A DNA stretch of 54,371 nucleotides, from positions 1 to 54,371 of IMG/VR virus record IMGVR_UViG_3300007735_000756; one strand, written 5' to 3'. Below the pieces are notes generated by a model. That model ran no database searches, was not told the DNA's origin, and was given only the letters and a program-made list of their open reading frames with translations. A program made the position numbers and the translations under genes. The stretch comes from a virus. Lineage: Duplodnaviria; Caudoviricetes. Shown here one piece after another: positions 5,562-39,737 of this stretch (position 1 is the stretch's first letter; each line of letters starts with the position of its first letter).

Positions 5562-5773
5562 AAAGATTCTGGAAATTATGGGCCCAGAGTCTGGGCGAGA
5601 AAGTATCCAAATGTGATAAAGAAAGCGACACGGTAGCGATGATTCGCACCGTGATTTTTAGTACATATCTCATCACCAATCTCTTCATATGTGCTGGTGT
5701 GTCACGTCATTGGAATGATGTAACTCTGGGGCCTTCAAAGTGTTCCTATAGTGTAAGCACTCAAACCAAATGA
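5558..5773 (+). CDS. Small membrane protein (W++WA+SLGEK...D.VA.IRT)
   Basis: ORF with one TM helix; C-terminus reads through repeat copy 1. Confidence 0.65.
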   Translation: MKRFWKLWAQSLGEKVSKCDKESDTVAMIRTVIFSTYLITNLFICAGVSRHWNDVTLGPSKCSYSVSTQTK

Positions 5774-6229
5774 TAGAGTTTGACGACATTTCAATTGAAG
5801 AGTTCTCTCCTTTTGATTTTGTAGAGGAGATGAATGAATCTCCCGACAAAGAAGATTCATTCAAATTTGATGAATATCTAAAATCCAACATTGATTATTG
5901 ATTATGAATCCTGACACTTTTAATTTCACCGGTGATGCTGTTACCTATTTGGGTTTTGTTGGTGTGATCTCCACACTGATTATTCTTGTAACTGCTTTCA
6001 CTCGTTTCTACAAATCGCCCCTAAACAAATGACCGACACTGTAAACGTTCTGCCTCATCTCAAAGAACTTCGTGATTCTTGGAAGCAGCAAGATTTTCAA
6101 TTCACTAAGGAACAGCAGGAAAAATATGATATTCTGATTATTGCTCGTCAGGAACGAATAAAGTTCTTCAAAGAGAACGGACTTGTTTCAAAGGGTAGTA
6201 AAGTTGTTGATTCTCGTGAGGTAGATTAA
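5770..6229 (+). CDS. Cassette 1: 43-aa acidic peptide (5770-5901), 42-aa single-TM peptide (5904-6032), 66-aa protein (6029-6229)
   Basis: ORFs read manually after repeat 5722. Confidence 0.65.
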
Positions 6230-6262
6230 CACTAAATAATCAAAAGATACGTTCAGCAGCAA

Positions 6263-6859
6263 ATGAAAACCTTTCAAGAGTTTTATATGATTGCAGAGGC
6301 AACATATGACGCAAGTGTAATGAGTTCTTCTCAAATTAGAAAAACTGGAGAAGGTGGGCGTATTGGTGCTGAACGTAAGAAATCTGCTGCTGAAATACGT
6401 AGATTGAGGCAGGCAAAACCTGGAGAGGAAAGAAAACAAACAGAATATAAAGATCGTAAAGATATAGGTACTCAACGACAGGCAGATACAAGAGTACAAC
6501 AACCAACACAACCCCGTGATTCTGCTGCTGTAAGAGAAAGAGCAGCAGCAGCAGCGAGGGAAGAAAGAAGACAAGCAGCATTGGCAAGAAGATCTGGTAC
6601 AGATACACCAAAACCAAAACCAAAAGATTTGGTAAAAAGTGCATCAAAACTTTTAAGTAAAACTAAAACCCCCGAAGTAGATTTGAGACCTTCAGATCAA
6701 CCAAAGAGAGCAGTTGTTGGTATGTCAAGAGAGACAAGAAAGGATATTACTAGAAGAGGAAGTAGAAAACTTAGAGATTTAGTAATAAAGCATAGAGCAG
6801 AAAAGCAAGGAGTTGATCCATCTAAAATTACACTTTCACCAGACTATGATGTAAAATAA
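6263..6859 (+). CDS. Basic late protein with capsid-targeting-like N-terminus (probable internal head protein)
   Basis: MKTFQEFYMIAE; CTAAATA at ~6232; K/R-rich. Confidence 0.65.
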   Translation: MKTFQEFYMIAEATYDASVMSSSQIRKTGEGGRIGAERKKSAAEIRRLRQAKPGEERKQTEYKDRKDIGTQRQADTRVQQPTQPRDSAAVRERAAAAAREERRQAALARRSGTDTPKPKPKDLVKSASKLLSKTKTPEVDLRPSDQPKRAVVGMSRETRKDITRRGSRKLRDLVIKHRAEKQGVDPSKITLSPDYDVK

Positions 6860-6928
6860 ACTCTGGGGCCTTCAAAGTGTCCCTATAGTGTAAGCACTCA
6901 ACCCAACCAAATTCAACCAGACAAGATT

Positions 6929-7099
6929 ATGACTTCAAATCCTTATGTTGATCACTTGATTGAAAAGGGTTACACTGAGCAAGAGATTCGTCAGACTCGT
7001 GCTCCGAAGCGCACCTTCCCTTATACTATTGGGGCACGTACATATCAGACTGAAGAGGCATATCAATGGGCACTTAGTGAATTTCTAAACGGTATTTGA
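6929..7099 (+). CDS. Cassette gene, 56 aa
   Basis: Sole ORF between repeats 6859 and 7111. Confidence 0.7.
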   Translation: MTSNPYVDHLIEKGYTEQEIRQTRAPKRTFPYTIGARTYQTEEAYQWALSEFLNGI

Positions 7100-7164
7100 T
7101 AGGTAATAGTAACTCTGGGGCCTTCAAAGTGTCCCTATAGTGTAAGCACTCAACCCAACCTCAA

Positions 7165-7832
7165 ATGACCCGAATTGAGATTCAAAGAGCACTCTATGAT
7201 GCTCGCAAAGAATATGTAAAAGCACAAAAGCAAGTTGAGTTTCAAAAACGTGAAATCGCATTTCTAAATCAATGCTGGAAAGAATTTGATTTAGACCTTT
7301 ACTCTGAAATGTTTTCCTAAATTTTCATTATGAAATCCGTAACTATTCCCATCACAACTCTTGAGGCTCTGATTGAGTGTCTTGCAGATGCGATTAATGT
7401 TTGCTATAATGTAGATTCCAAATCCAAACGTTGTGAACTATCTTATCCTTATGCAGTAGGATATAGTCGTTCTGCAATGCTTCTAATTCAGGATCAACTT
7501 AAGAATCTGAAAACACAAAACTGATTATGACACTTTGGAGAGCAGAATGTTGGTTGGGTTCCAATGCGGGACGCCAAACACTTGAAGTAAACGCAAGTAC
7601 ACCTACAGGTGCAAAGGAACAACTGCAACGGGTTTATGGTGCAGAACATATAAGTAACATAAGAGAAGTTTCCAATCTTTCTACTGGTTTATCTGGTGAA
7701 GATATTGATGCAAAAATATGGTTAATTGCTATTATAGGGGTTCTTTATTTGGTTGTAACATATTGGTATGTTGCTATTCCAGTTAGTGTTATTCTTGGTA
7801 TTCTCATCTATATGGGAATGAAGGAAGATTAG
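7165..7832 (+). CDS. Cassette genes 7165-7320 (51 aa), 7330-7524 (64 aa), 7527-7832 (101 aa, C-terminal TM)
   Basis: Consecutive ORFs after repeat 7111. Confidence 0.7.
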
Positions 7833-7866
7833 AATAACTCTGGGTCCTTCAAAATGTTCTTATAGT

Positions 7867-9117
7867 ATGAATCTCAACTCAATGAACTTTCAACTTCGTC
7901 CTCATCAACTTCGTGGTGTTGATGCTATGTCCAAGCACGACAAAGGTCAACTCATAAAACCAACTGGAGCAGGAAAAACTCTTACTATGATTGCTGATGC
8001 ACTCAAAGAGTTTGCTAAAGAAACTCCACAGACCATTGTTGTTGTTGCACCACGTATTTTGCTTGCGGAGCAGTTATCCTGTGAGTTTTTGGAGTTTATC
8101 ACTAACGCACAAGTATTTCACTGCCACAGTGGAGAAACTCATCACGAAAGTTCTACTCGTCCTGCTGTGATTAGTCAGTGGGTTGAGAACAATAACTCTC
8201 ATCACAAGTTGATATTCACCACATACAATTCTCTTCAACGACTTGTTGATGCCGAGATTGATGTGAATACGATATTTTTTGATGAGGCACATAACAGCGT
8301 CAAACGTAACTTTTTTCCTGCAACGGAGCACTTCTCCGCAAATGCAAATCGTTGTTACTTCTTTACTGCAACCCGCAAGACTTCTGCGACTGTAGGTAAA
8401 CCAGGAATGAATGATTCTGAGGTTTATGGTAACATAATTTGTCGTGTTTCTGCACCAGAACTTGTTGATGGTGGGTATATTGTCCCACCCAAAGTTTTTA
8501 CACACCCATCTAAAACTACTGATGAATGTGGTGGGTGTTCTTATGAACGAGACAAGCACAATCTCATAGACATTATCAACACCTATGGAATGGATAAAGT
8601 ATTGATTGTATCCAAAAAGACTAAGGATATTATAGGTCTCACTACTCAAACTGATTTCCAACTCCAAATGGAACAATTGGGATATGAGGTTCTTCACATT
8701 TCCAGTAAGTTTGGTGCCTTTATCAACAATCAGAAAGTCAATCGTGAGGTATTTTTTGATACTCTCAATGCTTATGGTAAGGATGTGAACAAGAAGTTTG
8801 TTGTGCTGCATTTTGATATTCTTGCGGAAGGATTAAATATATCTTGCCTGAATGGTATTGTATTTCAGCGCAGTACAGATTACATCAAAATATTACAAAC
8901 TGTTGGTCGTGCTATTCGTCTTGATCCACGAGACAGTAAGGGTATGCAAGAGGGCACAATCACTCCCGGTGCCGTGAATACCTACAATAAGAAGTTTGGT
9001 CTCGTTGTTACTCCTGTGTTTGATAAGGTTGGTATCAGCACTGCCAAAAAAATTGAGGTTTGCCTTGATACTGTTTTTTCGAAAGGTGATATGTTAGATT
9101 CAGTGGTTCGCAGGTGA
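7867..9117 (+). CDS. Superfamily 2 DEAH-box helicase (ResIII-like)
   Basis: LRPHQ Q-motif, PTGAGKT, DEAH, TAT, ILAEGLN, QTVGRAIR; start may be 7867 or 7882. Confidence 0.9.
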   Translation: MNLNSMNFQLRPHQLRGVDAMSKHDKGQLIKPTGAGKTLTMIADALKEFAKETPQTIVVVAPRILLAEQLSCEFLEFITNAQVFHCHSGETHHESSTRPAVISQWVENNNSHHKLIFTTYNSLQRLVDAEIDVNTIFFDEAHNSVKRNFFPATEHFSANANRCYFFTATRKTSATVGKPGMNDSEVYGNIICRVSAPELVDGGYIVPPKVFTHPSKTTDECGGCSYERDKHNLIDIINTYGMDKVLIVSKKTKDIIGLTTQTDFQLQMEQLGYEVLHISSKFGAFINNQKVNREVFFDTLNAYGKDVNKKFVVLHFDILAEGLNISCLNGIVFQRSTDYIKILQTVGRAIRLDPRDSKGMQEGTITPGAVNTYNKKFGLVVTPVFDKVGISTAKKIEVCLDTVFSKGDMLDSVVRR

Positions 9118-9229
9118 GACCCAATGAGACCCTGGTCTACCACTAGAGCAAAACCTGATTTTTTGATGATTCTACCCTGAGAGCATGAAAGGTCATTTAC
9201 CACAAACGAAAACACCGATTTTTTGAAAA

Positions 9230-9659
9230 GTGACACAAATGCAAAAAGGATTTTTGATTGATAAGGGTGTCTATGCTTGTGTTTCCTCTGGTGGGCAGTT
9301 TATGATACTTTACGAGGGGCAACAGTTGAAGTTATGTCGGACAGAAAGTTCGGCAAGAAAGTATATCAACGAACACAAGAAAATCGGGAGTGTTGCACAA
9401 CTACCCATAGAATAAACTTTCCGGAACCTTCAAAATGTTCATGACCAAACAAAATCACAATTCTCTCCAAACTCAAATCAAAATGAATAAACAATTCCTA
9501 ATTGATATTACGTGCGAAACATTTATTGCTCGCACCAAATACTTTGCTCAACAGAATGATTTTTCCACAGTCGCAGCAATTTATTCTGAATGGATCGTTG
9601 ATGGGGTAGATCCAGAAAATGGAGAGTATGTATGGAGTTTTATTCCCATAATCATTTGA
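9230..9659 (+). CDS. Two small hypothetical proteins (9230-9415; 9435 or later start to 9659)
   Basis: Track ORFs separated by the truncated repeat at ~9415. Confidence 0.6.
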
Positions 9660-9690
9660 TGACATTAGAAATTGTATCTTGAGATAAATT

Positions 9691-10119
9691 ATGAAAACCA
9701 TTTTGCACAGTGGATACGGTTATCAAAAACTTCTCTGTGAGAATGTTACTTCTTGGTTTCTGAATAAGTTTCTTCCCCGACATAAAGTTGAGGTTGAAAT
9801 CTTACATCGTGGTCTCAAAAGAGAGGGGGTTTATGGTTGGTGCTCTGTTCAAGATTGTAACTGGAATCCCAGACATTTTCTGATTGAGATTCAAACTCAC
9901 CTAAATCAGGACGATTACATTATTTGTTTATTGCACGAACTACAGCACGTTTTACAACATGTTCGCGGAGATTTGAAAGATAAAGGCAACATTCGCTGTT
10001 GGAAAGGTATTGATTGTAGTGAAATGAAATATGATGAGATGCCATGGGAAATTGAGGCACATAAAAAAGAACAAGAACTTTATAAAGAGTATTTTATCCA
10101 TCTAAATTCTAATACCTAA
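9691..10119 (+). CDS. HEXXH zinc metallopeptidase-like protein
   Basis: LLHELQH ... PWEIEA. Confidence 0.75.
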   Translation: MKTILHSGYGYQKLLCENVTSWFLNKFLPRHKVEVEILHRGLKREGVYGWCSVQDCNWNPRHFLIEIQTHLNQDDYIICLLHELQHVLQHVRGDLKDKGNIRCWKGIDCSEMKYDEMPWEIEAHKKEQELYKEYFIHLNSNT

Positions 10120-10617
10120 ATGACTCCCGAACAAAAGTTACAACAACTGTTTGAAGAGATATATCAACTCTGCGACCAACAAGGTTGGGGTGACCCATTC
10201 TCATATGCTCGCTCTCGTGAGATACATCTTGCTTGTATTCTTGGGCATAAAGTAGCAAAAACCTATTCTGGTGCTGATGCTGTGGATGAAGAAGGTGAAT
10301 GTGAGTATAAATCTACCATTGCTAATTCTATCAATGCGACATATAATGGCATTAGTGTTCAAGATAATTGGGAAGAACAGGAGCGTTATTTAATTGAAGA
10401 AAAGATCGGTAAATACTCTAATCATTATATTGCTCGCTATGATGGTTGTAAAGTGGCAGAAGTGTGGAAACTGACTAGTGATAATGTATTGATGATTCTT
10501 CTTCCCAAACTCAAGAAAGATTGGGATCGTAAGATTCACGGTAAGTACAAAGATCCCCGCCTCTCTGGTAGTCTGTCCAAGAAAGAAATCTATCAATTTG
10601 GTAATCTTATTATATGA
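10120..10617 (+). CDS. Putative PD-(D/E)XK endonuclease
   Basis: RE...GADA....CEYKS; overlaps the MTase start. Confidence 0.55.
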   Translation: MTPEQKLQQLFEEIYQLCDQQGWGDPFSYARSREIHLACILGHKVAKTYSGADAVDEEGECEYKSTIANSINATYNGISVQDNWEEQERYLIEEKIGKYSNHYIARYDGCKVAEVWKLTSDNVLMILLPKLKKDWDRKIHGKYKDPRLSGSLSKKEIYQFGNLII

Positions 10618-11162
10618 CAATTGACTCTAAAAAGATTTTATATTCAAATGGTGGAGGAAATGAAGCGTATACTCCTGATTATGGTGTTACTCCAATTCTC
10701 AAATATATTCCCATAGATGCAAAGGTCTGGTGTCCATTTGATACAATTGATAGTGAGTTTGTCAAGCAGATTAGTCAGCAGAATGAAGTAGTCTTCACTC
10801 ATATTCAGTATAATCAGGACTTTCTCACCTATGAACCTGATAACTGGGATATAATTGTATCTAATCCACCATTCACAAACAAGCGTAAGTTCTTTGAGAG
10901 AGCATTATCATTTGACAAACCATTTGCATTGATTATGTCCAACACTTGGTTGAATGATAGTGCTCCAAAGCAGTTATTTAAGAACAAGGATTTGCAGTTG
11001 TTGATGTTTGATAAACGAATGAAGTTTCATAGTCCTGATGGTAGATCAAACGACAAGATTACGTTCAGTAGTAGTTACTATTGTTGGAACTTTCTACCCA
11101 AACAAATCATAATGGAAGAATTGCAAATAAATCAATCAAAAGCAAGACTTCCCGTTGATTAA
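10614..11162 (+). CDS. Small amino (N6-adenine-type) methyltransferase
   Basis: YTP, WCPFD, QDF, DIIVSNPPF motif IV. Confidence 0.85.
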   Translation: MTIDSKKILYSNGGGNEAYTPDYGVTPILKYIPIDAKVWCPFDTIDSEFVKQISQQNEVVFTHIQYNQDFLTYEPDNWDIIVSNPPFTNKRKFFERALSFDKPFALIMSNTWLNDSAPKQLFKNKDLQLLMFDKRMKFHSPDGRSNDKITFSSSYYCWNFLPKQIIMEELQINQSKARLPVD

Positions 11163-11191
11163 AACTCTGGGGCCTTCAAAGTGTCCCTATA

Positions 11192-11381
11192 GTGTCGGGG
11201 AGAGCACCAAAGTTCTGGTTCAGGTTTAAGTTTTTGATCAGACTTAAGTACTTGGTCCGGGCAATGGAATAATGCTCTTGGTAATTCGTCTCAAACAATT
11301 TAGTGCTTCACAAGGTACTAAAGAGAATGAGAATCCACTGTTGTGAGTGGTAGGATGGGGGTTCAAATCCCCCCCCGATGT
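11192..11381 (+). ncRNA. Candidate structured RNA with tRNA/tmRNA-like T-arm at its 3' end
   Basis: GGGGG-TTCAAAT-CCCCC; TCGGG/CCCGA closing stem; several internal hairpins; no ORF; fills a cassette slot. Confidence 0.6.
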
Positions 11382-11481
11382 ATTCTTGACCCATTGAATA
11401 GAGGGGTCTTTAAATATACTCTATTCTGGGGCCTTTAAAGTGTCCCTATAGTGTCACCACTCACTTTGTTCTTTCTTGATT

Positions 11482-11733
11482 ATGATTGTTTCTGAAGTAT
11501 TTCATTACACTACTTCCGGTTGGGATTGGCAAGATTGTAATATGAATCAGATGTGGATTGAAGAGATTGAGGAATCTCCTGATTGTTACAAATACGTTGC
11601 TGTTGCTTACAATCCTCGTAAGGATGTGAGGATTGTAATGTCTGAACCACGTTGCTATGCTGATACCCTAAATTGGATACGTAGTTGGTGTCGTACTTTC
11701 TGTATTCTTCCTGAGTTCTCTGTTGCTGTTTGA
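11482..11733 (+). CDS. Cassette gene, hypothetical
   Basis: Track ORF 11476..11733 after repeat 11422. Confidence 0.7.
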   Translation: MIVSEVFHYTTSGWDWQDCNMNQMWIEEIEESPDCYKYVAVAYNPRKDVRIVMSEPRCYADTLNWIRSWCRTFCILPEFSVAV

Positions 11734-11878
11734 TTATGACACCCACACAAGTTAATGGTAAGAAGGTTAATCGTGAGAACTTTTAGATCGACTTAATCAA
11801 TTGATTCAGAGTTACTAACTCTGGGGCCTTCAAAGTGTCCCTATAGTGTAACCACCAACCAACCAAAAGCAAAACCCA

Positions 11879-12482
11879 ATGTTTATTACCTGCCCTGTTT
11901 CTTTTGATTTGTGTGATGCCGAATGGTTTGATGATGTGGAGGATGCAAAGGATGATGCACTTAATTGGAGTGTAGAACTTCATGGTGAGAATGTAGTTGT
12001 ATATGAAGCAGTTGAGGATAATTGTGGATATAAGTTTAATCCATTATCGTCTATTTTTGCCTAGTTATCTTGCTATTTTTACCAATGAAAGTTCCAAACT
12101 GGGTTCATAACTCAGGAAAACAAAAGAATACTAAGGGCACTTGCAAAGGACAACTTAAAGCAAGAAAGCAAGCACTTCAAGCACTCAAAAACAAACTGAA
12201 CTTCAAATGACTTTCATGGAACTCTCACAAATTCTCACACTCTCTACTGCACACCTTCATCCTTTGGAAGGACAGAAGATTGATAAAGCTGCTTATATTG
12301 CTAGTGATACTTCTGCTCTGGTAACTACTGACCCAGGAATGTATGAGTTTTATATTGAAAAAAGTCTACCTTGTTTGGTAGAATTGCTGAAATTGGTTAA
12401 AGAACAACATGATGATGTTGCTTATGTTTTATTTGACCCTGATGCAAATGTAGATGATGCTTACAAATCTTATGATTGGTAA
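11879..12482 (+). CDS. Cassette genes 11879-12064, 12085-12210 (basic 41 aa), 12207-12482
   Basis: ORFs after repeat 11817; 12085-12210 read manually. Confidence 0.7.
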
Positions 12483-12485
12483 CCC

Positions 12486-12546
12486 TTGTGCCCAGTAATC
12501 GCACTGGCACATAACACCTCCAAAGGCACCTTTGCCGTGTTATGAT
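12486..12546 (+). promoter_or_regulatory. Early-promoter-like element TGTGCCCAGT-N6-ACTGGCACA ... TGTTATGAT
   Basis: Clear dyad plus extended -10, upstream of ATG 12589. Confidence 0.6.
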
Positions 12547-12588
12547 TACGGAGTAATCAACCAAAAGCAACCCCGTCAAAGAAACAAA

Positions 12589-12750
12589 ATGAACACTTTC
12601 ACCAGACCCTACAATCTTCACCGTCAATGGGTTGAGGATGACATGAAGGAGGATTATGGTTATGACAATCTTATCGCATTTAATGAGGCAGTTGCTAATG
12701 GTGATTTAATTATTGGTGCAGATGGGTACGCAAGACCTCCAGTTGATTAA
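12589..12750 (+). CDS. Small hypothetical protein
   Basis: Track ORF 12532..12750, likely ATG 12589. Confidence 0.65.
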   Translation: MNTFTRPYNLHRQWVEDDMKEDYGYDNLIAFNEAVANGDLIIGADGYARPPVD

Positions 12751-12781
12751 AACTCTGGGGCCTTCAAAGTGTCCCTATAGT

Positions 12782-13678
12782 ATGAAGAACACACACCTAG
12801 AACACCCTGAAGATGAGATTCTCACAGGTAACCTATCTGTGCTGAATTGGTTCACTGCAAAATCAAAGATTACCGTCAAAATTGATGGAAGTCCTGCAAT
12901 AGTTTTTGGTACAAACCCAGAGAACGGTAAGTTCTTCGTGGGCACCAAAAGTGTCTTCAATAAAGTCAAGATCAAAATCAACTATTCCGTAGAAGATATT
13001 ATTCGTAATCACGGTAATAATGTTCGTGTCTCAGAGATTCTGATTGCTTGCTTTCACAATCTACCACGTATCTCTGGTATTATTCAGGGAGACTTTATTG
13101 GTGCTGGTGGTTCCGATACATATTGCCCCAATACTATCACCTATAAGTTTCCAAAAGTAATCACTCAACCGATTATCTTTGCTCCTCATACAACCTATTC
13201 TGGGAGCAATCTTCGTGATTGTAGTGCATCCTTCGGTGCGAAAGTTCGTGCCTGTTCTACAGTCTTATGGGTGCGTCCTAGAGTGTATCTAACTGCGGAT
13301 CGTGAAGATATTCTTGACTTCTGTAACTTTGCCCGCCAGATGAGCACTTTGTGTGAATTTGTGTCTGAAAAAGAAGCAGTCAAAATCAAGAAAGAGATTA
13401 ACCTTTATATTCGTGAGAATCGTAAAGTTTGTGAGTATGAGATTGCCGAGAAGTATAATTGTGACAAAAACTTGATTCGGTTGTGGAAACTTGTGGAGAG
13501 CATAAAGATGGATTTGTTCTTCTACATTCGTGCCGATAAAAGTATTTATTGTGAGATTGATGGTCGCAGTAGTGATCACGAAGGATATGTTATTTCCAAT
13601 CGTTTTGGAACCTATAAAGTGGTGAATAGAGAAGAGTTTAGCAGACTCAACTTCACTCTGGAGAAGTCCTGGAGTTAA
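12782..13678 (+). CDS. Ligase/nucleotidyltransferase-superfamily protein (DUF6267-like)
   Basis: VKIDGS (motif I), QGDF, EGYV, YKVV; N-terminus MKNTHLEHPED. Confidence 0.7.
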   Translation: MKNTHLEHPEDEILTGNLSVLNWFTAKSKITVKIDGSPAIVFGTNPENGKFFVGTKSVFNKVKIKINYSVEDIIRNHGNNVRVSEILIACFHNLPRISGIIQGDFIGAGGSDTYCPNTITYKFPKVITQPIIFAPHTTYSGSNLRDCSASFGAKVRACSTVLWVRPRVYLTADREDILDFCNFARQMSTLCEFVSEKEAVKIKKEINLYIRENRKVCEYEIAEKYNCDKNLIRLWKLVESIKMDLFFYIRADKSIYCEIDGRSSDHEGYVISNRFGTYKVVNREEFSRLNFTLEKSWS

Positions 13679-13775
13679 TAACTCTGGGGCCTTCAAAGTG
13701 TCCCTATAGTGTAAGCACTTCAAATTCCAACATCACTGAAGTCTCACTACTTTCTTAACATTCAACTAAATCAAA

Positions 13776-14129
13776 ATGACTGCTACTTTTTCTGATTACG
13801 TTGCCACACAGGATGCTCGCAACACCATTCATCTTAACATCGTTAAGTATGGTCTGATTCTGTGTGATGCACTGAAGCAAACTGCACCAGATGGTTATGG
13901 TTTTGAACTGGAATCTTCTGGGCGTAAGTATCATAAGATCTTTTTGTGTATCAACGGCAAGCGTGATTCTATTCACGCTTTTATTGATAAGAAGACTGGT
14001 GATGTCTACAAACCAGCATCAATCAAAGCACCTGCCAAAGGTGTTAGATACAACCTGCGACTAATTAACGATAGGGAATGGTTATTTGCGAATGCCGACT
14101 GGAGCGGATCGTATCTTTATTCTCGTTGA
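13776..14129 (+). CDS. Phage hypothetical protein (HAFIDK.TGDVYKPAS..APAK)
   Basis: Sole ORF in its cassette. Confidence 0.85.
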   Translation: MTATFSDYVATQDARNTIHLNIVKYGLILCDALKQTAPDGYGFELESSGRKYHKIFLCINGKRDSIHAFIDKKTGDVYKPASIKAPAKGVRYNLRLINDREWLFANADWSGSYLYSR

Positions 14130-14201
14130 TTAAAACTCTGGGGCCTTCAAAGTGTCCCTATAGTGTAAGGTTCAAACCTTTCAAACCACCAAATCTCAAA
14201 A

Positions 14202-14489
14202 ATGGCACAAACACTTCATCCATTCACTTCTTCTACTTCAGGTCTTGGTTACAATGTAGTTTCCAGTGAAATCTCAAGGATTGCTGTTGTTTCAAACGAC
14301 ACAGGAACTTATGATCTATTGGTAATTTTTCACAGCAATGTGGATAAAGTTTACCGATACATTTTTGAAGATGCTGGTGCTGCAATTCGTTTCATTAATC
14401 TTCTTGAAGATGATGTTGCCAGAGCAGAAACATCTTGGGGTTATGAGTTTAATCGGGCCCTAAAGCATGGTGATATTGAAATCGTTTGA
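14202..14489 (+). CDS. KTSC-like domain protein
   Basis: VSSEI.RI.....LLVIFHS...VYRY pattern. Confidence 0.5.
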   Translation: MAQTLHPFTSSTSGLGYNVVSSEISRIAVVSNDTGTYDLLVIFHSNVDKVYRYIFEDAGAAIRFINLLEDDVARAETSWGYEFNRALKHGDIEIV

Positions 14490-14500
14490 TTTTATACACA

Positions 14501-14531
14501 AAGAGGGGTGCTTTATGTGCCCCTCTTATTC
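14501..14531 (+). terminator. Hairpin AAGAGGGGTGC-TTTAT-GTGCCCCTCTT
   Basis: Strong stem after a stop codon, followed by T-rich sequence. Confidence 0.6.
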
Positions 14532-14552
14532 TTCCAAACTCTTTTAATTCTT

Positions 14553-14616
14553 TACCAGAAGTTGGGATGAAAAGTATCTTCAACAGGTAATGATTCCTAT
14601 TACTGTGTGTGCATAG
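14553..14616 (+). pseudogene. Orphan 3' fragment of a paralog of 14975..15379
   Basis: TRSWDEKYLQQVMIPITVCA* versus TKSWSETYLQQVEIPITVCA*. Confidence 0.85.
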
Positions 14617-14685
14617 GTAATCATAACCTGGGGCCTTCAAAGTGTCTCTATAGTGTAAGGCACTCAAACATTCAACCAAATCAAA

Positions 14686-15379
14686 ATGACACTCACCACT
14701 CAAACAATTCAAGAGTTCTTCACAGAAAATGAATGGGATATGATCTACAACTTCATCGGAAATGCTCTGGACAATGATGATTATGAGCGTGAAGATGTTT
14801 ATGCGATTCGTGCTAAAATTCACAATCTCTTTCTTTCACAATGAACACTCCAAACTGGAAACATAACTCTGGTAAGTCTAAACGAACCAAGGGCATGTGT
14901 AAGGGGCAAATTGTTGCTCGCAAACAAGCACTTAAAGCACTCAAACTCAAACTCAAGTAACATCCTTCAAAATCATGTCAACTCGTTCCCGCATCGGTCT
15001 ACAACTCTCAGATGGTTCTATATTATCTTCCTATCATCATTATGATGGTTATCCCGAATGGTTGGGACGTATTCTAACTACTCACTACAATTCAAAATCT
15101 CTTGCTGAAGAATTGATTGATGGTGGTGATATGACTTCCTGTTGGACAGATGAACGTTGGGATGATAGTGGTGTGAAGGGTGTTTATGGTCCTCAATATT
15201 ACTCTGCTCGTGGTGAAGATGTTCCACCTAGTCTTGATAATACTCTTGATGAGTATCTAAAACATAGTGAAGATTATTCTTATCTTTATCGTAATGGTGA
15301 ATGGGTATGTTATGATACTAAAAGTTGGAGTGAAACATATCTTCAACAAGTAGAAATTCCTATTACTGTGTGTGCATAG
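14686..15379 (+). CDS. Cassette genes 14686-14844 (52 aa), 14841-14960 (basic 39 aa), 14975-15379 (MSTRSRIG...HYDGYP type)
   Basis: ORFs after repeat 14625. Confidence 0.75.
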
Positions 15380-15453
15380 GTAATAGTAACTCTGGGGCCT
15401 TCAAAGTGTTCCTATAGTGTAAGCACTTCTCAACCACTTCACTCAAACCAAAA

Positions 15454-15873
15454 ATGCAACTTTCTGTCCGCTGCTCTTCTGCCCCTTGGGAGAACGAAAC
15501 CACTGATGAAGATCGTGCTATTGATCTGGCATATTCTCTCTCTGAAGAATACTCCTGTGATGTTCATTTAGTATACACTTCAACTGGTACTATTCACTCT
15601 GTTGTTTCTAACTACTAATCGATTATGAAACTCTACATTCTCAAAGAAGTTCTTTATGATTACACTTCTGGAATGTGTATCATCGCAGCAGAATCTATGC
15701 CTCAGTGTGAACAGATCTTTATGCAAGAGTTCGGGTATTTTACTGATTGCAATGGTGAACGTGTGAAAGATGAAGAGATGCAAAAACAGTTCAACAATGC
15801 CCAAGTCACTATCATCGAATCTGTAGGACTTGATGAAGCAGGTATTGTAGAATATGTTTATGGTGGAGGTTGA
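15454..15873 (+). CDS. Cassette genes 15454-15618 (54 aa) and 15625-15873 (82 aa)
   Basis: ORFs between repeats 15388 and 15889. Confidence 0.7.
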
Positions 15874-15941
15874 ATCATAAGAGTTAATAACTCTGGGGCC
15901 TTCAAAGTGTCCCTATAGTGTAAGCACTCACTCAAACTCAA

Positions 15942-16735
15942 ATGACCGACACTCAAACTCAAATGACCGAACAATCTTACTCCTTCAGGGGTATCTTCAC
16001 TGACAAAAACTACTCTACTCGCCTTGGTTACATGGCACCAACTGCACAAGATGCTTGGAATGGTATCGCAAAGCAGCATCCTACTTTCCTAGTTCAAAAC
16101 TGGGGACTTGAGGGTCAAGTTGACTAAAACTATTTTTCATTTATTAACATCTAAACTCAAACCAAACAAAATGACTGCAACTTTCACGATTAAGTATCAA
16201 GTTCCTTATCCATCAGTTGGACTCATTGAAGAATGGAGAACGCAAACATTTTCCACTCGTAATGAAGCAGAAAGAATGATAAAGTTCTATCGTTCCTGTG
16301 GTTCACCTGCAAAGATGATTTAGTTTAGTAAAGTATCAATCACAAAGAGGTTATTATGAACACTTTTGCAATTGTGACTCCAAAAAGTAATAAGGCAAAG
16401 AACAGATTTGCCAATCTTATGGATAAGAATCAAACTTGTATTGTTGAACAAATTAAGGACAATCTTGTGTTCTTACGTTCATTGAATGGCAAGAACTTTT
16501 TCTGGGTAAATCTTCTTAACGATTCTGATTGGAGCATTAAACTATGAAAAATCAAGATCAACTTATTCGTTCAATAGAACAAAGAATTGAAGATCTTTCC
16601 TTTATTGATGAAGAACTTGCATATCAATTTGAGTGTGATTTGTATTACGAAACAGATGGTGATGACGTGCCTATTGTTGAACTTTTCAATCAAGAACTTT
16701 TAGATGAACTTGATCAATTGATTCAGAGTTACTAA
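15942..16735 (+). CDS. Cassette genes 15942-16127, 16171-16323, 16356-16547, 16544-16735
   Basis: ORFs between repeats 15889 and 16734. Confidence 0.7.
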
Positions 16736-16787
16736 CTCTGGGGCCTTCAAAGTGTCCCTATAGTGTAAGCACTCAACCAACCTTCTA

Positions 16788-16976
16788 ATGACTAAAACAC
16801 AGATCAACGAAGCAATCGCTCAGGAATTCCTGAATCTTTCTACTCTCAACGAGTCGCTTTATGATTATTGGATCAATAATCTTTATACTGTTAATGGTGA
16901 ATTCATTGAGGATTCATGGAATGAATCCAATCTGAAAAAGATGAAAGATGATGTAATTTTTAACTCTGAATCTTGA
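16788..16976 (+). CDS. Cassette gene, 62 aa
   Basis: Sole ORF between repeats 16734 and 16992. Confidence 0.75.
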   Translation: MTKTQINEAIAQEFLNLSTLNESLYDYWINNLYTVNGEFIEDSWNESNLKKMKDDVIFNSES

Positions 16977-17044
16977 ATCATAAGAGTTATTAACTCTGGG
17001 GCCTTTAAAGTGTCCCTATAGTGTAACCACCAACTCAACTTCCA

Positions 17045-17377
17045 ATGACCACCTTTACCACCTTTCCTTTCCGAAAAACAATGAGCATCAATGACCTGTT
17101 TGATTCTATCAAACTCACTGAGTCTTTAGCACTTGAAAACTATCAGCAACGTAATGGAGTTGTTGATTATCGTTTAGATGGAGTTTGTAATCATTACTTC
17201 CCAGTCTGGAATGATAAAGAACCGTCATTTAAAACTGGTGAGATAGTGCTCACATGTAAGGTATCTAAAACAGTCAAGGGTCAGTTACGTTACAACTTTC
17301 TTATCAATGGTAAGAGAGTTGCAGAGAAGATGATTCCTTCAACATTCTTATCATTGGGTGCCTTTTGGAGTAAGTAA
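17045..17377 (+). CDS. Cassette gene, hypothetical
   Basis: 110-aa ORF after repeat 16992. Confidence 0.75.
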   Translation: MTTFTTFPFRKTMSINDLFDSIKLTESLALENYQQRNGVVDYRLDGVCNHYFPVWNDKEPSFKTGEIVLTCKVSKTVKGQLRYNFLINGKRVAEKMIPSTFLSLGAFWSK

Positions 17378-17466
17378 GATCTAAAGAGAGGAAGGAGTTT
17401 TTTGCCTCTATAAACAAAGTGACTCTGTAAAGTATGAATAATTCTTTAAAAGGTGGTTGGGTGAAT

Positions 17467-17506
17467 AAAGAGAGAGAGGACTGGTAATCCTTTCTCTCTT
17501 TTTTTT
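17467..17506. terminator. Probable bidirectional intrinsic terminator
   Basis: AAAGAGAGAGAGGA-loop-TCCTTTCTCTCTTTTTTT between convergent genes. Confidence 0.8.
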
Positions 17507-18008
17507 ATGTCAATAAACGACGTAATCCATATTGCATAATATAACTTTCTAGTGAGTTTTCAATGATAGAATTGATGAAGGTGTTTGTATCAGGAACTGG
17601 TAATCCTTTTCTTATTGATGCTGTATAAACCTGTTTCACTCTCTTTGCAAGAAAGTCATCTAATACGTAACCATCAAACTCTTTCTGTATCTTATCAGTC
17701 TTCCATTCTAAGTTCTCAAGTCTGTTATCACTTAAGTCACCATTCTTGTGTATTACAGATCTTGAAATGTCATCAGTTGGAATGAATGCTAATGCTAATA
17801 ATCTATGAATCACGAAGTTCTTCAGATTGCCGTATCTATCAGTAAGTCTTACAAACTTACATTGTCTTGTCTTAGACTTCCAACCGGGAGAAAGTATCTT
17901 TGATTTATTATGTCTAAAACTCCATACATTTCCTTCGGTGTCTATACCATACTCAGTGAAGTCTTTAAGTAATTCAACTTTAGATAAGTTGACGATTCTG
18001 CTCTCCAT
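17505..18008 (-). CDS. NUMOD4-HNH homing-endonuclease-like protein
   Basis: YGIDTEGNVWS, IHRLLALAFIP, HKNGDLSDNRLENLEW; only convincing minus-strand gene. Confidence 0.8.
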   Translation of the reverse strand: MESRIVNLSKVELLKDFTEYGIDTEGNVWSFRHNKSKILSPGWKSKTRQCKFVRLTDRYGNLKNFVIHRLLALAFIPTDDISRSVIHKNGDLSDNRLENLEWKTDKIQKEFDGYVLDDFLAKRVKQVYTASIRKGLPVPDTNTFINSIIENSLESYIMQYGLRRLLT

Positions 18009-18143
18009 ATCTTTGAATTGTTTTTCCTGTTCATTTTATGTATGGGAAAAGAGTTTTCCACAGGTTGAATTTAAAGATTGAATTATTATTAGTTAAACTT
18101 GAATTTTAGTGTATTACAAATCTTAATAGGTGATGAATAAAGA

Positions 18144-18268
18144 GTCTTATTAAATGCTGAATAGGGTTCTTAAGAATCTTTATTAAACCTTATTAAATGC
18201 TGAATAAAGGTCTTATTAAGTGTTGAATAGGGTTCTTAAGAATCTTTATTAAACCTTATTAAATGCTG
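18144..18268. repeat. AT-rich ~66-bp tandem duplication built from CTTATTAAATGCTG sub-repeats
   Basis: Units start at 18144 and 18210. Confidence 0.9.
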
Positions 18269-18289
18269 GATCTTATAGTTATCTAAGCG

Positions 18290-18318
18290 AGCATACACCA
18301 AGAATCATAAATTGTCAA
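18290..18318 (-). promoter_or_regulatory. Sigma70-type promoter TTGACA-N17-TATGCT (minus strand)
   Basis: TGTCAA at 18313-18318 and AGCATA at 18290-18295. Confidence 0.7.
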
Positions 18319-18360
18319 GAATAAAGTTGCAAATCTCCACAAAAGTTCCCCCCAGGACCT

Positions 18361-18400
18361 CATAAACACTCATAAACACTCACAAACACTCATAAATACC
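18361..18400 (+). repeat. Four 10-bp tandem repeats (CATAAACACT)
   Basis: cataaacact cataaacact cacaaacact cataaatacc. Confidence 0.9.
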
Positions 18401-18410
18401 CTCAACCTAC

Positions 18411-18439
18411 TTGACACCTATTGTAGGTCATTGTAGACT
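18411..18439 (+). promoter_or_regulatory. Sigma70-type promoter TTGACA-N17-TAGACT
   Basis: Exact -35, 17-bp spacer, AAGGAG RBS downstream. Confidence 0.75.
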
Positions 18440-18468
18440 AGTCACATACATTAAGGAGCATCATTCTC

Positions 18469-18642
18469 ATGTCGGTATCTTATCTTCAGGGACAAAAGCA
18501 ACGTTTTCGTGTTACATTAGAACTTGACGTTTTGAATGACTTTGATCCACACAATATGGAATGGGAGAGGATTTTTGACCTAGAACCGAATGAGAAAGTA
18601 TCGGCATATGTAGAGGATCTCGATGTACCTGTGCGCTGGTAA
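18469..18642 (+). CDS. 57-aa hypothetical protein (RVTLELDV..DFDPH..EW)
   Basis: ORF read manually, with promoter, RBS and terminator. Confidence 0.8.
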   Translation: MSVSYLQGQKQRFRVTLELDVLNDFDPHNMEWERIFDLEPNEKVSAYVEDLDVPVRW

Positions 18643-18658
18643 TCTATGAAGTGATAAT

Positions 18659-18693
18659 ACCTGTGAAGTAATAGTATTTCACAGGTTTATTTT
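18659..18693 (+). terminator. Intrinsic terminator
   Basis: ACCTGTGAAGTA-ATAG-TATTTCACAGGT-TTATTTT. Confidence 0.75.
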
Positions 18694-19161
18694 GTATAAA
18701 TAAACATATCAGATTAAGAGTTCTGAATTGTTTCATTCTAAAGTATAATTCTTTCCCATAAAAGCACAATAGCCGGTTAACCCGCGTGAGGTAAGACTTT
18801 TAAGAGTGGATATAAAGAATTCCCTACTTTCTTTGAGCACTTAAGAATCATTAACTGATACATTCTATTTGAATACATTTCAGGCAAAACTGGTTTAACG
18901 CAAGGTTTCCTAAGGCGCCGCACAAAAAGTATATTCAAATATAGCACAATTAAGAATAACAAAAACAGGGATGGTTCCTAATAGAATTAGATTTTAATTC
19001 TATTACTTAGGGGTCAATTTATAGTGTCTAGATGTATTAAGTTCTTATTAAGTTCTTATTAAGTGATGAATTAAGTATCTGATCATAACCTATAAGTATC
19101 TGATCATAACTCTGGGGCCTTTAAAGTGTCCCTATAGTGTAAGCACTCAACCAAGCTTCCA

Positions 19162-19374
19162 ATGGTTATTATCTACACTAAGGCGGCCGCCAATGGCGAA
19201 TTTGATGGAGTCGGCATGGATAGTCAGCGTATCAGTCGCGAATATAAAACAACTCGAGGATTCCTTCAGCACGGTCTTCCTAATAACTTTAGGGGGACAA
19301 CATTAAGATTGGAGATATATTATGGGGACAATATTTATCGGGCTCCGGATAAAGTTACGTACATTGTGACATGA
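19162..19374 (+). CDS. Cassette gene, 70 aa
   Basis: Sole ORF after repeat 19108. Confidence 0.75.
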   Translation: MVIIYTKAAANGEFDGVGMDSQRISREYKTTRGFLQHGLPNNFRGTTLRLEIYYGDNIYRAPDKVTYIVT

Positions 19375-19494
19375 CAGATCTGACCCATTGAATGGATGGG
19401 TCATTAAATATACTCTATTCTGGTTATCTTAACTTAAGATAACTCTGGGGCCTTTAAAGTGTCCCTATAGTGTAAGCACTCAACCAAGCTTCCA

Positions 19495-19740
19495 ATGACC
19501 TACAATCCTTGCAAAGATGCTGCCACCCTTGAACACTTTGCAAGGTGGGAGATGCACTCTAAAACTCTAGATATGTACTCCTTAAAGTATATAATCAACG
19601 ATTGCAAGTCTGCTGCTGAGAATATGAAGGGTTGGAATCCAATCCGAGAGGGTTACTATCTGGACCAGGCAGCAACTTATGGGATGGAAGTAACACGTAG
19701 GAATGCGCAATTGCCCTTTGGTTTACGTCATAGAGTATAG
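19495..19740 (+). CDS. Cassette gene, 81 aa
   Basis: Sole ORF after repeat 19441; leader identical to that of 19162. Confidence 0.75.
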   Translation: MTYNPCKDAATLEHFARWEMHSKTLDMYSLKYIINDCKSAAENMKGWNPIREGYYLDQAATYGMEVTRRNAQLPFGLRHRV

Positions 19741-19865
19741 TACTAAGTAACGTTGACCCATTGAATAGGGGGGTCATTAAATATTCTCTATTCCGGTTAT
19801 CTTAAGTTAAGATAACTCTGGGGCCTTTAAAGTGCCCCTATAGTGTAACCACCGCCCAAACCAAG

Positions 19866-20156
19866 ATGACCACCGCAACCTATCAATTGAATTCCCTTAA
19901 TATCTCCTACAATGGTTGGGAGAATTATGAAACCTGGAATGTTGCTCTCTGGATTCAAAATGATGAGTTTCTCTATAACACAGCCAAAGCATGTGTAGAG
20001 TTCTGCAATGATAACGAAACACCTTATGATAAGTTCGTTCGTTGCATGACTGAGGGACAGATTGGTCGTCATCTTGTTAGCACTCCGGACGGTGTTTCTT
20101 ATAACAATCCTAAAATCAATCACCTGGAAGTCAACGAAATGATTCAAGATCTTTGA
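19866..20156 (+). CDS. Cassette gene (YNGW.NYETWNVALW type)
   Basis: 96-aa ORF after repeat 19814. Confidence 0.8.
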   Translation: MTTATYQLNSLNISYNGWENYETWNVALWIQNDEFLYNTAKACVEFCNDNETPYDKFVRCMTEGQIGRHLVSTPDGVSYNNPKINHLEVNEMIQDL

Positions 20157-20174
20157 GTCGTTAACACAAACAGT

Positions 20175-20346
20175 CCTGAGTTATGACTATAAACTAACTC
20201 CGTGAATTAGGGCACAATCACGTTAATCATGCCCAGGTAGATAAGTAATGCGATCTACCGTGAATGGCAGTGATACACGTCACAACTCTGCCAAACTATG
20301 TACCCTCTGGTTGACACTGGGGGGCACTACAGTGAGTGAAACTCAC
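20175..20346 (+). ncRNA. Candidate structured RNA (tandem pseudoknots and hairpins)
   Basis: Crossed pairs AGTC/GACT with GAGTT/AACTC, CGTGA/TCACG with GGGCA/TGCCC; GGTAGAT/ATCTACC; TGGCAG/CTGCCA; GTGAG/CTCAC. Confidence 0.5.
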
Positions 20347-20489
20347 CAGTGGAATGGTGTAACACCCGACCCAACGGGAGTAGGGGTCATTAAATATACT
20401 CTATTCTGAGAATTCTGAGGTAATCATAACTCTGGGGCCTTTAAAGTGTCCCTATAGTGTAAGCACTCAACCAACTCAACTTTCCTCCC

Positions 20490-38186: not shown

Positions 38187-39737
38187 ATGGCAGCAATTAT
38201 AACTGATCAAATTAGAATATTGAATGCCAAGAATTTTGTTGCAGGAGTTACTTCTTCCACAGATTCTTATTATTCATTTATTGGATTGCCGAATGCAACC
38301 GATATTCAATCTGATTGGAACACCACACCGCCAGCACCAAAGGATAATTTTGATGAGGAGAGTAATTATTGGGACACGATGATTGCATTAAAGAAGATAA
38401 ATTCTGGTGATGTGAGGCAAGTTATACAAAAAAGAATTTGGTCTTCCGGTACAACATATGATATGTACCGTCATGACTATAGTAGGTCAAATACAGCGAA
38501 GGTTTCTAGATCAACAAATTTATATTCATCATCATATTACATTTTAAATAGTGATTATAAAGTTTATATTTGTCTTCAGAATGGTATTTCACCAGAAACT
38601 CCAAATGGAAAACCTTCTTTAGATGAACCAACATTTACAGATTTGGAACCAAAATCTGCTGGATCTAGTGGTGATGGGTACGTTTGGAAATATCTGTACA
38701 CGATTAAACCAAGTGATATCGTAAAGTTTGAATCTACAGATTTTATGCCAGTTCCTGCAAATTGGGAAACTAGCACAGAAAATTCCGCAGTCAGGGATAA
38801 TGCGGTTGATGGGTCAATCAAAATTATTACTATTACAAATAGAGGAGTTGGTGTAGGAACTGCAAATAGAACATATACAAGAGTACCAATTAAAGGTGAT
38901 GGAACAGGTGCAGAATGTACTATTATTGTTAATAATGATCAGCAAGTAGATTCTATTACAATTTCAAGTCAAGGATCCGGATATACTTATGGTAATGTTG
39001 ATTTAGTATCTGGAAATACCCCGATAGGGACAACAAGACCTACTTTTGATGTAATTATTCCACCTCAAGGAGGTCACGGAAAAGATATTTATAGAGAACT
39101 TGGTGCATATAATGTACTTCTATATTCAAGAATGGAAAATGATGTGGAAAATCCAGATTTTATTACTGGAAATCAGATATCTAGAGTTGGAATTGTAAGA
39201 AATCCATTAACTTATGCATCTTCACAATCATTAAGTTTAGATAAAGCAAGTGCAGTTTCTGCAATTAGATTAACAGGAATCGGTTATAGTTCTGCATCTT
39301 TTACTGCTGATTCATTCGTTACACAGACTGTGAGCACAGGGGTGACTGCTGTTGGAAGAGTAGTTAGTTATGATCAAAATACTGGTGTTTTAAAATATTG
39401 GCAAGACAGAACTCTTGCTGGGTTTAATACTGTTGGTACTGCACAATCAAGTCCACAGTATGGATTTGATCTAACAGAATTTACTAGTTCCCCATCAACT
39501 GGAGGAAGTTTAACAATTCTTGGTGGTAGTGTTAGTTTATCAATCAATTCAACCTTTACCGGTATATCAACCTCAATAAATAATAGAACATATTACTTGG
39601 GTCAATCTTTTACAAATGGTCTTTCCAGTCCAGAAGTTAAGAAATATAGTGGCAGCGTAATTTACGTAGATAATAGACCATCCATTACAAGATCATCAAA
39701 CCAAAAAGAAGATATCAAAGTCATTTTGCAGTTCTAA
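38187..39737 (+). CDS. gp8: Baseplate wedge subunit gp8
   Basis: MAAIITDQIRILNA, YKVYICL.N, DGYVWKYLY; late promoter GATAAATA at 38162. Confidence 0.92.
   Translation: MAAIITDQIRILNAKNFVAGVTSSTDSYYSFIGLPNATDIQSDWNTTPPAPKDNFDEESNYWDTMIALKKINSGDVRQVIQKRIWSSGTTYDMYRHDYSRSNTAKVSRSTNLYSSSYYILNSDYKVYICLQNGISPETPNGKPSLDEPTFTDLEPKSAGSSGDGYVWKYLYTIKPSDIVKFESTDFMPVPANWETSTENSAVRDNAVDGSIKIITITNRGVGVGTANRTYTRVPIKGDGTGAECTIIVNNDQQVDSITISSQGSGYTYGNVDLVSGNTPIGTTRPTFDVIIPPQGGHGKDIYRELGAYNVLLYSRMENDVENPDFITGNQISRVGIVRNPLTYASSQSLSLDKASAVSAIRLTGIGYSSASFTADSFVTQTVSTGVTAVGRVVSYDQNTGVLKYWQDRTLAGFNTVGTAQSSPQYGFDLTEFTSSPSTGGSLTILGGSVSLSINSTFTGISTSINNRTYYLGQSFTNGLSSPEVKKYSGSVIYVDNRPSITRSSNQKEDIKVILQF

Follow-up and report, generated by a model that had tools for sequence, protein, structure and literature searches.

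The closest described counterpart of the RNA reported here is species 1 RNA (rnaC) of phage T4, a stable RNA of ~140 nucleotides (nt) located at 70908–71046 on the minus strand of AF158101. RNase P excises it, and CCA is added to it. T4 has been known for decades to make tRNA-like stable RNAs, yet to our knowledge their role is still unexplained. Folding of rnaC gives a z score of −4.6. The structure comprises an acceptor-type stem of 7 base pairs (bp), in which two U-U mismatches occur, then one long hairpin, another hairpin, and a canonical T-arm. When the sequences of five Tevenvirinae phages are aligned, compensatory changes are seen at 19 of the 46 pairs. A search of Rfam with rnaC gave no match at E-values up to 1. 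Here we describe a 190-nt element at positions 11192–11381 on the plus strand of the IMG/VR virus record IMGVR_UViG_3300007735_000756 (54,371 nt; this whole 54-kb stretch of DNA is called the window). Its sequence and fold predict that the element is a real and unusual tRNA-like noncoding RNA gene missed by the standard screens.

The setting of the element also has a described counterpart. In the passages concerned of PMC2839356 and PMC4122927, PeSLs, composites of a promoter and a stem-loop (Arbiol, Comeau, Krisch), are described as shuffling points in T4-like phages. These repeated motifs flank the small, variable genes of hyperplastic regions and indicate where genes are gained, lost, or replaced. 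The same passages of PMC4122927 do not deal with cyanophages (the word "cyanophage" occurs 0 times). The window derives from a T4-like cyanomyovirus of fresh water. Domain matches identified gp6 and gp8, baseplate genes of the T4 type, in the window, the identity of gp6 is 76% to Synechococcus phage Bellamy and 73% to S-SM2, and the public runs holding the stretch are mostly freshwater or drinking-water metagenomes. The completeness estimated by CheckV is 25%. The RNA is located in the hypervariable early region among small early open reading frames (ORFs), with a promoter-like repeat on one side and a stem-loop element on the other.

A gap of 319 nt at 11163–11481 interrupts an otherwise tightly packed run of plus-strand genes. 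As the original prediction had stated for the slot after the repeat, no plus-strand ORF of at least 40 amino acids (aa) is present between 11162 and 11476, and the minus strand has only two 40-aa TTG frames there. The features of the gap are as follows.

11167–11194, plus strand: copy of the 28-nt promoter-like repeat, CTGGGGCCTTYAAAGTGTCCCTATAGTG; the RNA begins with its last three bases (GTG)
11192–11381, plus strand: the whole tRNA-like RNA, 190 nt, GC content 0.45 versus 0.38 locally, based on fold energy, sequence context, and sliding windows
11193–11199, plus strand: 5′ strand of the acceptor stem, UGUCGGG, pairing 7/7 with 11374–11380
11201–11278, plus strand: hairpin domain H1, in which the basal helix AGAGCA/UGCUCU closes a long irregular hairpin; it occupies the place of a D-arm (minimum-energy fold)
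11279–11288, plus strand: single-stranded linker of 10 nt, UGGUAAUUCG, unpaired in the minimum-energy fold
11289–11332, plus strand: hairpin H2, in which UCUCA/UGAGA closes a 10-bp helix, UUUAGUGCUU/AGGUACUAAA, with the loop CACA (minimum-energy fold)
11335–11350, plus strand: hairpin H3, CCACU-GUUGUG-AGUGG, resembling an anticodon arm or the long variable arm of a class II tRNA
11357–11373, plus strand: T-arm, GGGGG-UUCAAAU-CCCCC, the part aligned confidently to the Rfam tRNA-clan models
11374–11381, plus strand: 3′ acceptor strand (CCCGAUG) and one further U; CCA is not encoded
11386–11415, plus strand: stem-loop element TTGACC-(GACCC...GGGTC)-TTAAAT; the other copies of the four are at 19381–19423, 19753–19800, and 20382–20408
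11426–11453, plus strand: next copy of the 28-nt repeat, starting the following cassette (ORF 11482–11733)

As in tRNA, the two ends of the RNA pair into an acceptor stem, which stacks on a T stem of 5 bp carrying a UUCRANY loop of 7 nt. The pairing of TGTCGGG with CCCGATG is complete, with two G-U pairs, and the T-arm is canonical, both as originally predicted; among the T-arm motifs of the window, only the one at 11357–11373 has an all-G/C stem. G11192 and U11381 may form an eighth acceptor pair (G-U) resembling G−1 of tRNA-His. The D-arm side is taken by the two long hairpins, about 135 nt altogether. The linker between them, read together with the preceding U, gives UUGGUAA, which may resemble the GG motif of a D-loop. 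Six linker bases separate H3 from the T-arm. In the stable fold, the loop of H3 has 6 nt, and a 7-nt loop (UUGUGAG) is formed only in a weaker register containing a C-A mismatch and two G-U pairs.

Most internal helices of the original prediction (AGAGCA/TGCTCT, TTAAGT/ACTTAA, TCTCA/TGAGA, TTTAGTGCTT/AGGTACTAAA, and CCACT/AGTGG) are found in the minimum-energy fold. The remaining one, ACCAA.GT/ACTTGGT, is absent from it and represents a competing alternative, since ACUUGG pairs with UCAGGU instead. A natural variant of the RNA in X5, one of the environmental contig sources, is relevant to this choice. The three substitutions listed for the variant are all at unpaired positions of H1, and a 2-nt deletion removes a 2-bp G-C/U-G mini-helix together with its bulge; the fold is otherwise kept, and the energy is −67.6 kcal/mol compared with −67.9 kcal/mol. 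The ACCAA.GT/ACTTGGT helix fits the variant less well, because two of its pairs would be broken by the U-to-C change and the deletion, which in the minimum-energy fold affect an unpaired base and the mini-helix. No sequence differences are listed for H2 in X2, X4, or X5.

The predicted fold is far stronger than that of shuffled sequences. The folding energy of 11192–11381 is −67.9 kcal/mol, compared with a shuffle mean of −49.2 kcal/mol (z = −4.0; 0 of 200 shuffles as good). Once GC content is corrected for, none of the 2710 sliding 190-nt windows taken from the two strands is as extreme. Folding of the opposite strand is much weaker (−48.6 kcal/mol, z = −2.4), and the fold is retained identically in a 263-nt context.

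These values bear on the possibility that the structure arose by chance or is an untranscribed spacer, i.e. a leftover 3′ fragment of a tRNA lying beside unrelated foldable DNA. The frequency of 7-mers able to pair with CCCGATG is 2.7e-4 per position (29 sites on both strands of the window), so an acceptor partner is expected by chance with a probability of ~0.1 anywhere 40–400 nt upstream. This value and the lack of detected homologues are compatible with a chance origin. On the other hand, the corresponding probability right at the end of the repeat, exactly where the acceptor strand is placed, is ~0.001. The fold statistics and the strand asymmetry are not expected of a chance structure, the 319-nt gap is conspicuous amid dense coding, and the interior of the RNA surpasses 60 of 60 shuffled interiors in the control described below. 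A chance structure is thus highly improbable.

Another strongly folding stretch of the window, 14440–14660, consists of an ordinary terminator and a gene remnant. The strong intrinsic terminator, AAGAGGGGUGC/GUGCCCCUCUU, is at 14501–14528, and the region 14530–14620 is a noncoding copy of the 3′ end (15300–15390) of the gene ending at 15379. This copy downstream of a terminator looks like a scar of cassette shuffling.

The RNA was then compared with known tRNA-type families. ARAGORN in the default tRNA, intron, and tmRNA (transfer-messenger RNA) modes called no gene at the locus and no tRNA gene anywhere in the 54 kb. The 190-nt RNA matched no Rfam family at gathering thresholds. This outcome of both screens had been anticipated when the element was proposed. 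No cloverleaf of 70–95 nt is thus recognized at the programs' own thresholds. At permissive E-values, no model of the Rfam tRNA clan scores above 13 bits, and only the 17-nt T-arm is aligned with confidence (posterior probability 1.0).

The suggestion that the RNA might be a reduced tmRNA or a Y-RNA-like adaptor finds no support in these searches. The T-arm and the paired ends are features of such molecules, and tmRNA is the best match within the clan. The absence of an Ala-type acceptor stem is less clear-cut than first stated: position 3:70 is U-A in the 7-bp register, whereas the 8-bp register starting from G11192 has G3-U70 followed by A. The lack of an encoded CCA carries no weight, because CCA is missing from all 12 ordinary tRNA genes that were inspected at loci of related cyanophages. 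However, tmRNA scores 13 bits where the gathering score is 47, the T-arm being the one part aligned with confidence, and the tmRNA mode of ARAGORN is empty even at the 70% threshold. The helix order also differs, since the basal helix following the acceptor stem encloses H1 alone and not the whole body as in tmRNA. No Y-RNA family of Rfam matches at E-values up to 10. This explanation is already close to refuted.

The relation to ordinary tRNA is closer but incomplete. Only when its thresholds are relaxed does ARAGORN interpret the 3′ 73 nt as a tRNA-His(gtg), and as a poor one. When positions 16–73 and 88–143 of the RNA are excised, the remaining 77 nt pass the default thresholds as tRNA-His with an 8-bp acceptor stem and G at −1. 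This call should be treated with care: if the boundaries are chosen freely, 50 of 60 sequences with shuffled interiors yield at least one tRNA call, so that one call after a hand-picked excision proves little, which weakens the tRNA-His origin that it seemed to indicate. The number of calls is more informative. Among 15,608 double-excision constructs of the real sequence, 588 were called as tRNA, while the 60 controls in which the interior was shuffled and the acceptor stem and T-arm were kept gave a mean of 25 calls and a maximum of 170. The tRNA likeness of the acceptor strand and of the 3′ ~47 nt (H3, the short linker, the T-arm, and the acceptor) therefore exceeds chance. A 21-mer of the T-arm, GGATGGGGGTTCAAATCCCCC, occurs at 38 places in 185,579 species genomes, of which 33 are tRNA-Leu genes.

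Two explanations would derive from this resemblance. A working tRNA (His or Leu), used in translation with its two inserted segments removed or tolerated, would agree with the default call on the excised core, its 8-bp acceptor and G at −1 as in tRNA-His, and with the 10–11 tRNA genes carried by related cyanophages. However, the intron mode of ARAGORN finds nothing at default settings, and the insertion sites, one in the D-loop and the other between the D and anticodon stems, match no bacterial tRNA intron site known to us. Group I introns would be longer than these insertions, and none was found with Rfam. The anticodon stem in the decoding register contains the C-A mismatch and the two G-U pairs, and the excision control is weak. 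We consider a decoding tRNA very unlikely.

The other explanation is a His-like or Leu-like tRNA gene that has decayed after two insertions and persists as a functionless remnant in the hypervariable region. The relaxed tRNA-His(gtg) call on the 3′ 73 nt, the default call on the 77-nt core, the 21-mer common to tRNA-Leu genes, the lack of a stable 7-nt anticodon loop, and the absence of detected homologues can all be understood in this way. A decaying gene does not readily account for other observations. The full 190 nt including the insertions form the most stable fold of the window, every stem is intact, the gene has its own promoter-like repeat, and the sequence is nearly unchanged in runs of several studies. 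In addition, the excision result is weak alone, as shuffled interiors are also called, and no tRNA-His combining this loop with this T-arm was found in the 185,579 species genomes. A decayed tRNA therefore appears unlikely.

The position of the 28-nt repeat relative to the acceptor strand should be noted, since it is related to transcription of the RNA. The window contains 18 copies with up to three mismatches, all on the plus strand within 5726–20459, against 0 expected from shuffles. The core of the repeat, AAGYGTCCCTATAGTR, recurs in the marine phages S-SM2 (8 copies) and SynMITS9220M01 (9 copies), exclusively on the forward strand of the equivalent early region (42696–57141 and 38894–50027, respectively), while the upstream half of the motif is phage-specific (CTGGGGCCTTYAA, GGGGGGTCGNNTA, and TTACTCACCYCTA). 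The repeat does not follow the sigma-70 consensus, with no TTGACA-like −35 box at the right distance. Over the 17 bases that precede the G, the motif may agree with the SP6 promoter at about 11 positions. A reading of the repeat as an RNA hairpin (GGGGC/GUCCC) is disfavored, since SynMITS9220M01 keeps the 3′ half of the motif and has no pairing G-run.

An ATG directly follows TATAGT in the window copy at 12755, in four of the eight S-SM2 copies, and in four of the nine SynMITS9220M01 copies. In the case of DUF6267, the encoded N-terminus MKNTH.. is preserved while its codons differ synonymously, and the Pfam profile begins two residues past the ATG. Because the ATG abuts TATAGT and MKNTH.. is conserved, the very end of the motif must be transcribed. 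The 5′ acceptor strand of the RNA is therefore transcribed in either case, i.e. with a start within ...TATAG or with read-through of the motif. The start codons abutting TATAGT in these nine copies would imply leaderless or near-leaderless early mRNAs with an unusual start-site geometry. The letters GUCCCUAUAGUGUAAG, covering the repeat end and the leader start, look like a tRNA 5′ end (an acceptor strand of 7 nt, UA, and the start of a D-stem), and the same letters open an apparently ordinary tRNA in a related locus (L198, 2543–2620). This likeness is probably a coincidence.

On the other side of the RNA, the stem-loop GACCC..GGGTC is followed by (A/T)TTAAATAT(A/T)CTCTATTC. The element at 11386–11415 resembles a weak terminator, a sigma-70-like promoter that contains a stem-loop, or both. 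The TTGACC box stands 18 nt before TTAAAT, the PeSL layout, in two of the four copies.

The arrangement of these elements also bears on the possibility that the tRNA-like structure is a cis-acting punctuation of early polycistronic transcripts, in which cleavage by RNase P defines mRNA ends and the released RNA has no role. A precedent is given by the t-elements of plant mitochondria (PMC1920247). No terminator is found between the upstream methyltransferase gene, which ends at 11162, and the RNA, and a contig from an RNA library continues from the RNA into the next cassette; both observations are in favor of such a role. However, a structure of this type is found in a single one of the 18 slots bounded by repeats, an RNase P site does not need ~135 nt of additional hairpins, and a promoter-like repeat directly precedes the RNA. 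Punctuation as the sole role is accordingly quite improbable.

The available data support the view that the RNA is a cassette. The contig evidence concerns the parts of the stretch covered by contigs. In the DNA contigs of X2 and X4, which come from different studies, the RNA is unchanged. An X4 contig has a joint from 11426 to 11816, which gives the RNA another downstream neighbor, and an X5 contig has a joint from 11193 to 11809, so that the RNA is missing from this form. In the two closest relatives (L009 and L035; DUF6267 94% identical), unrelated DNA replaces the 3.4 kb between the helicase end and DUF6267. The proposal that a tRNA-like RNA is carried as its own cassette is supported because the contigs show forms lacking the RNA and other downstream neighbors; the acceptor/T-arm, the strand-specific fold, the repeated flanks, and the replacement in the relatives point in the same direction. 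The analysis shows the fold, the tRNA-type parts, and the cassette setting, as well as the occurrence of the RNA in several environmental data sets.

From these observations, the element is most likely a non-decoding tRNA-like RNA whose acceptor/T-arm minihelix would be recognized by host tRNA-maturation enzymes and which would act in trans through mimicry or its appended hairpins, a reading that we hold with moderate confidence. Transcription would have its own start inside or just before the ...TATAG end of the repeat, so that the 5′ acceptor strand belongs to the transcript, and the downstream stem-loop may end or pause the transcript. Host enzymes would then take the acceptor/T-arm minihelix for a tRNA end, with RNase P acting at the 5′ side, followed by 3′ trimming and CCA addition. 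We infer that the processed product is a stable small RNA whose function is exerted most likely by the appended hairpins or by tRNA mimicry; it may bind or titrate a host tRNA-binding factor, or may serve as a small RNA built on a tRNA scaffold. It would be the same kind of molecule as rnaC.

A more specific form of this idea is an "expanded tRNA" that is produced from its own early promoter, trimmed, CCA-tagged, and perhaps aminoacylated by the host, and that acts in trans as a bait for a tRNA-targeting defense nuclease or a tRNA-binding factor, or as a tRNA-scaffolded regulator. Phage tRNAs and tRNA-cutting host nucleases are a current theme in phage defense and counter-defense. We regard this form as tentative and rather doubtful. 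For the decoy against anticodon nucleases suggested in the original prediction, the hairpin beside the T-arm would offer a canonical 7-nt loop of the anticodon type in its weaker register only. An antisense action on the phage's own leaders, suggested by the complementarity of AGUGCUU in H2 to the common leader UAAGCACU, was rejected on duplex energies and 10-mer counts: the mean duplex energy with 17 leaders (−25.0) is no better than that of shuffles (−27.3), and the RNA and the window have 12 complementary 10-mers versus 13.1 expected.

Several points weigh against the non-decoding tRNA-like RNA proposed here. One is that no homologue was found in any collection searched. The searches comprised blastn against GenBank phages; exact and degenerate patterns in IMG/VR, where the three matches of the last pattern are ordinary tRNA clusters; blastn, nhmmer, and a single-sequence model (R1) on 80 loci around DUF6267 homologues; the same model on the whole genomes of Bellamy, S-SM2, and SynMITS9220M01; and a pattern scan of one JGI metagenome, in which 0 of 36 loci were related. 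The first scan of species genomes gave 0 hits and the second 38, mostly tRNA-Leu genes. A scan for a T-arm combined with an acceptor stem in the related loci and two complete marine relatives gave only tRNAs and chance sites; a 171-nt candidate in SynMITS9220M01 was discarded, as it lies inside a coding sequence and does not fold in that way. Records very near the window may be missing from the searched collections, so the absence of near-identical copies there means little. A literature search revealed no report on a tRNA-like RNA of cyanophages, though the set of PMC10690425 (~10,000 candidate structured RNAs from IMG/VR) could include it.

The structural and expression evidence has its own weak points. 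Counted from the outside, the first three pairs of the acceptor stem are all G-U wobbles. The D-arm side does contain a GAGC/GCUC stem as well as GG motifs, yet when H3 was kept and positions 9–143 were shuffled, 12 of 30 controls reached the real count of 588; the D-arm side is therefore no more tRNA-like than shuffles. The energy retained by the X5 variant is only weakly unusual: random sets of variants do as well in 8% of cases, or in 13% if they are confined to H1, and one of the four substitutions of X5 is not listed. If TATAGT were a standard −10 box, the start site would land inside the 5′ acceptor strand. The evidence at the RNA level is one contig with a depth of 2.1 from one RNA library (X20), which covers 11258–11454 and no ends; it could be DNA carry-over and is not counted as proof of expression. 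No gene for a tRNA-related enzyme was found in the window. Finally, a covariance model of rnaC built from the five Tevenvirinae phages (R2) gave 28 weak matches in the window at E-values up to 10 with filters off, none of them at 11192–11381.

The gene neighborhood of the RNA is as follows. Upstream, 10120–11162 contains two overlapping genes, a PvuII-like nuclease candidate and a DNA methyltransferase (phrog_799). The match to PvuII-type endonucleases is weak (Pfam E-value 1.7e-4, below the cutoff; phrog_35715), and the pair could be a phage-borne restriction-modification-like system. The remaining neighbors are small proteins without assigned function. The only clear minus-strand gene of the window encodes an HNH endonuclease (17505–18008; Pfam HNH_3, phrog_959). 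It is followed by an ORF-poor region of ~1 kb with tandem repeats, cttattaaatgctgaata..., ctcataaacact (four copies), and taagtatctgatcataac (two copies), at 18090–18270, 18350–18400, and 19035–19100, which could be an origin or a regulatory region.

Elsewhere in the window, the 666-aa ORF at 645–2645 has no Pfam or PHROG match. Giant ORFs of 4010 aa (26131–38163) and 2808 aa (39744–48170) are located around gp8, and the former is syntenic with Bellamy gene 111, annotated as "baseplate wedge initiator". Related cyanophages carry 10–11 tRNA genes. One tRNA of SynMITS9220M01, called by ARAGORN as a 95-nt tRNA-Ile(tat) at 146660–146754, is unusually long for class I and is the only tRNA of that phage missed by the T-loop motif scan.

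Compared with known systems, the RNA shares its acceptor stem, the UUCAAAU T-loop, a hairpin directly before the T-arm, and the lack of an encoded CCA with class II (Leu) tRNA and tRNA-His, and the T-arm 21-mer with tRNA-Leu genes. Unlike a tRNA, it is 190 nt long, lacks a stable 7-nt anticodon loop, and has ~135 nt in place of the D region. It resembles tmRNA in having a tRNA-like domain with a T-arm and paired ends, but it is half the size, differs in helix order, contains no recognized pseudoknots or tag frame, and scores far below the thresholds. Its flanks are PeSL-like in that they consist of repeated motifs (18 and 4 copies) and that gain, loss, and contig joints occur at repeat copies. 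Contrarily, the 28-nt repeat is not a near-consensus sigma-70 promoter, and the cargo is an RNA gene instead of an ORF.

The likeness to rnaC is the most extensive. Both RNAs belong to T4-type myoviruses, are non-decoding (predicted so in the case of the present RNA), are absent from Rfam, and have paired ends stacked on a T-arm (CCGGG-UUCGAAU-CCCGG in rnaC), so that the acceptor stem and the T-arm enclose long hairpins foreign to tRNA. They differ in the number of internal hairpins (two in rnaC, three in the RNA described here) and in location: rnaC lies inside the T4 tRNA cluster, whereas the present RNA is found among small early ORFs in a 54-kb window without a tRNA gene. Since the rnaC covariance model does not match, the two are alike in kind and not demonstrably related. 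T4 species 2 RNA (rnaD; L089, 5054–5172, minus strand), unlike species 1, has no significant fold alone (z = −0.8).

The occurrence of a second example, unrelated in sequence, in a phage group that is abundant in the environment suggests that this solution recurs and is not an oddity of T4. The present RNA, moreover, has its own promoter-like element and moves as a cassette, and with its 190 nt and clear modules it is a compact object for experiments. Standard tRNA and Rfam screens overlook such genes. If the "expanded tRNA" form holds, this RNA and rnaC would be two instances of an unrecognized mobile class of tRNA mimics that T4-type phages exchange as cassettes.

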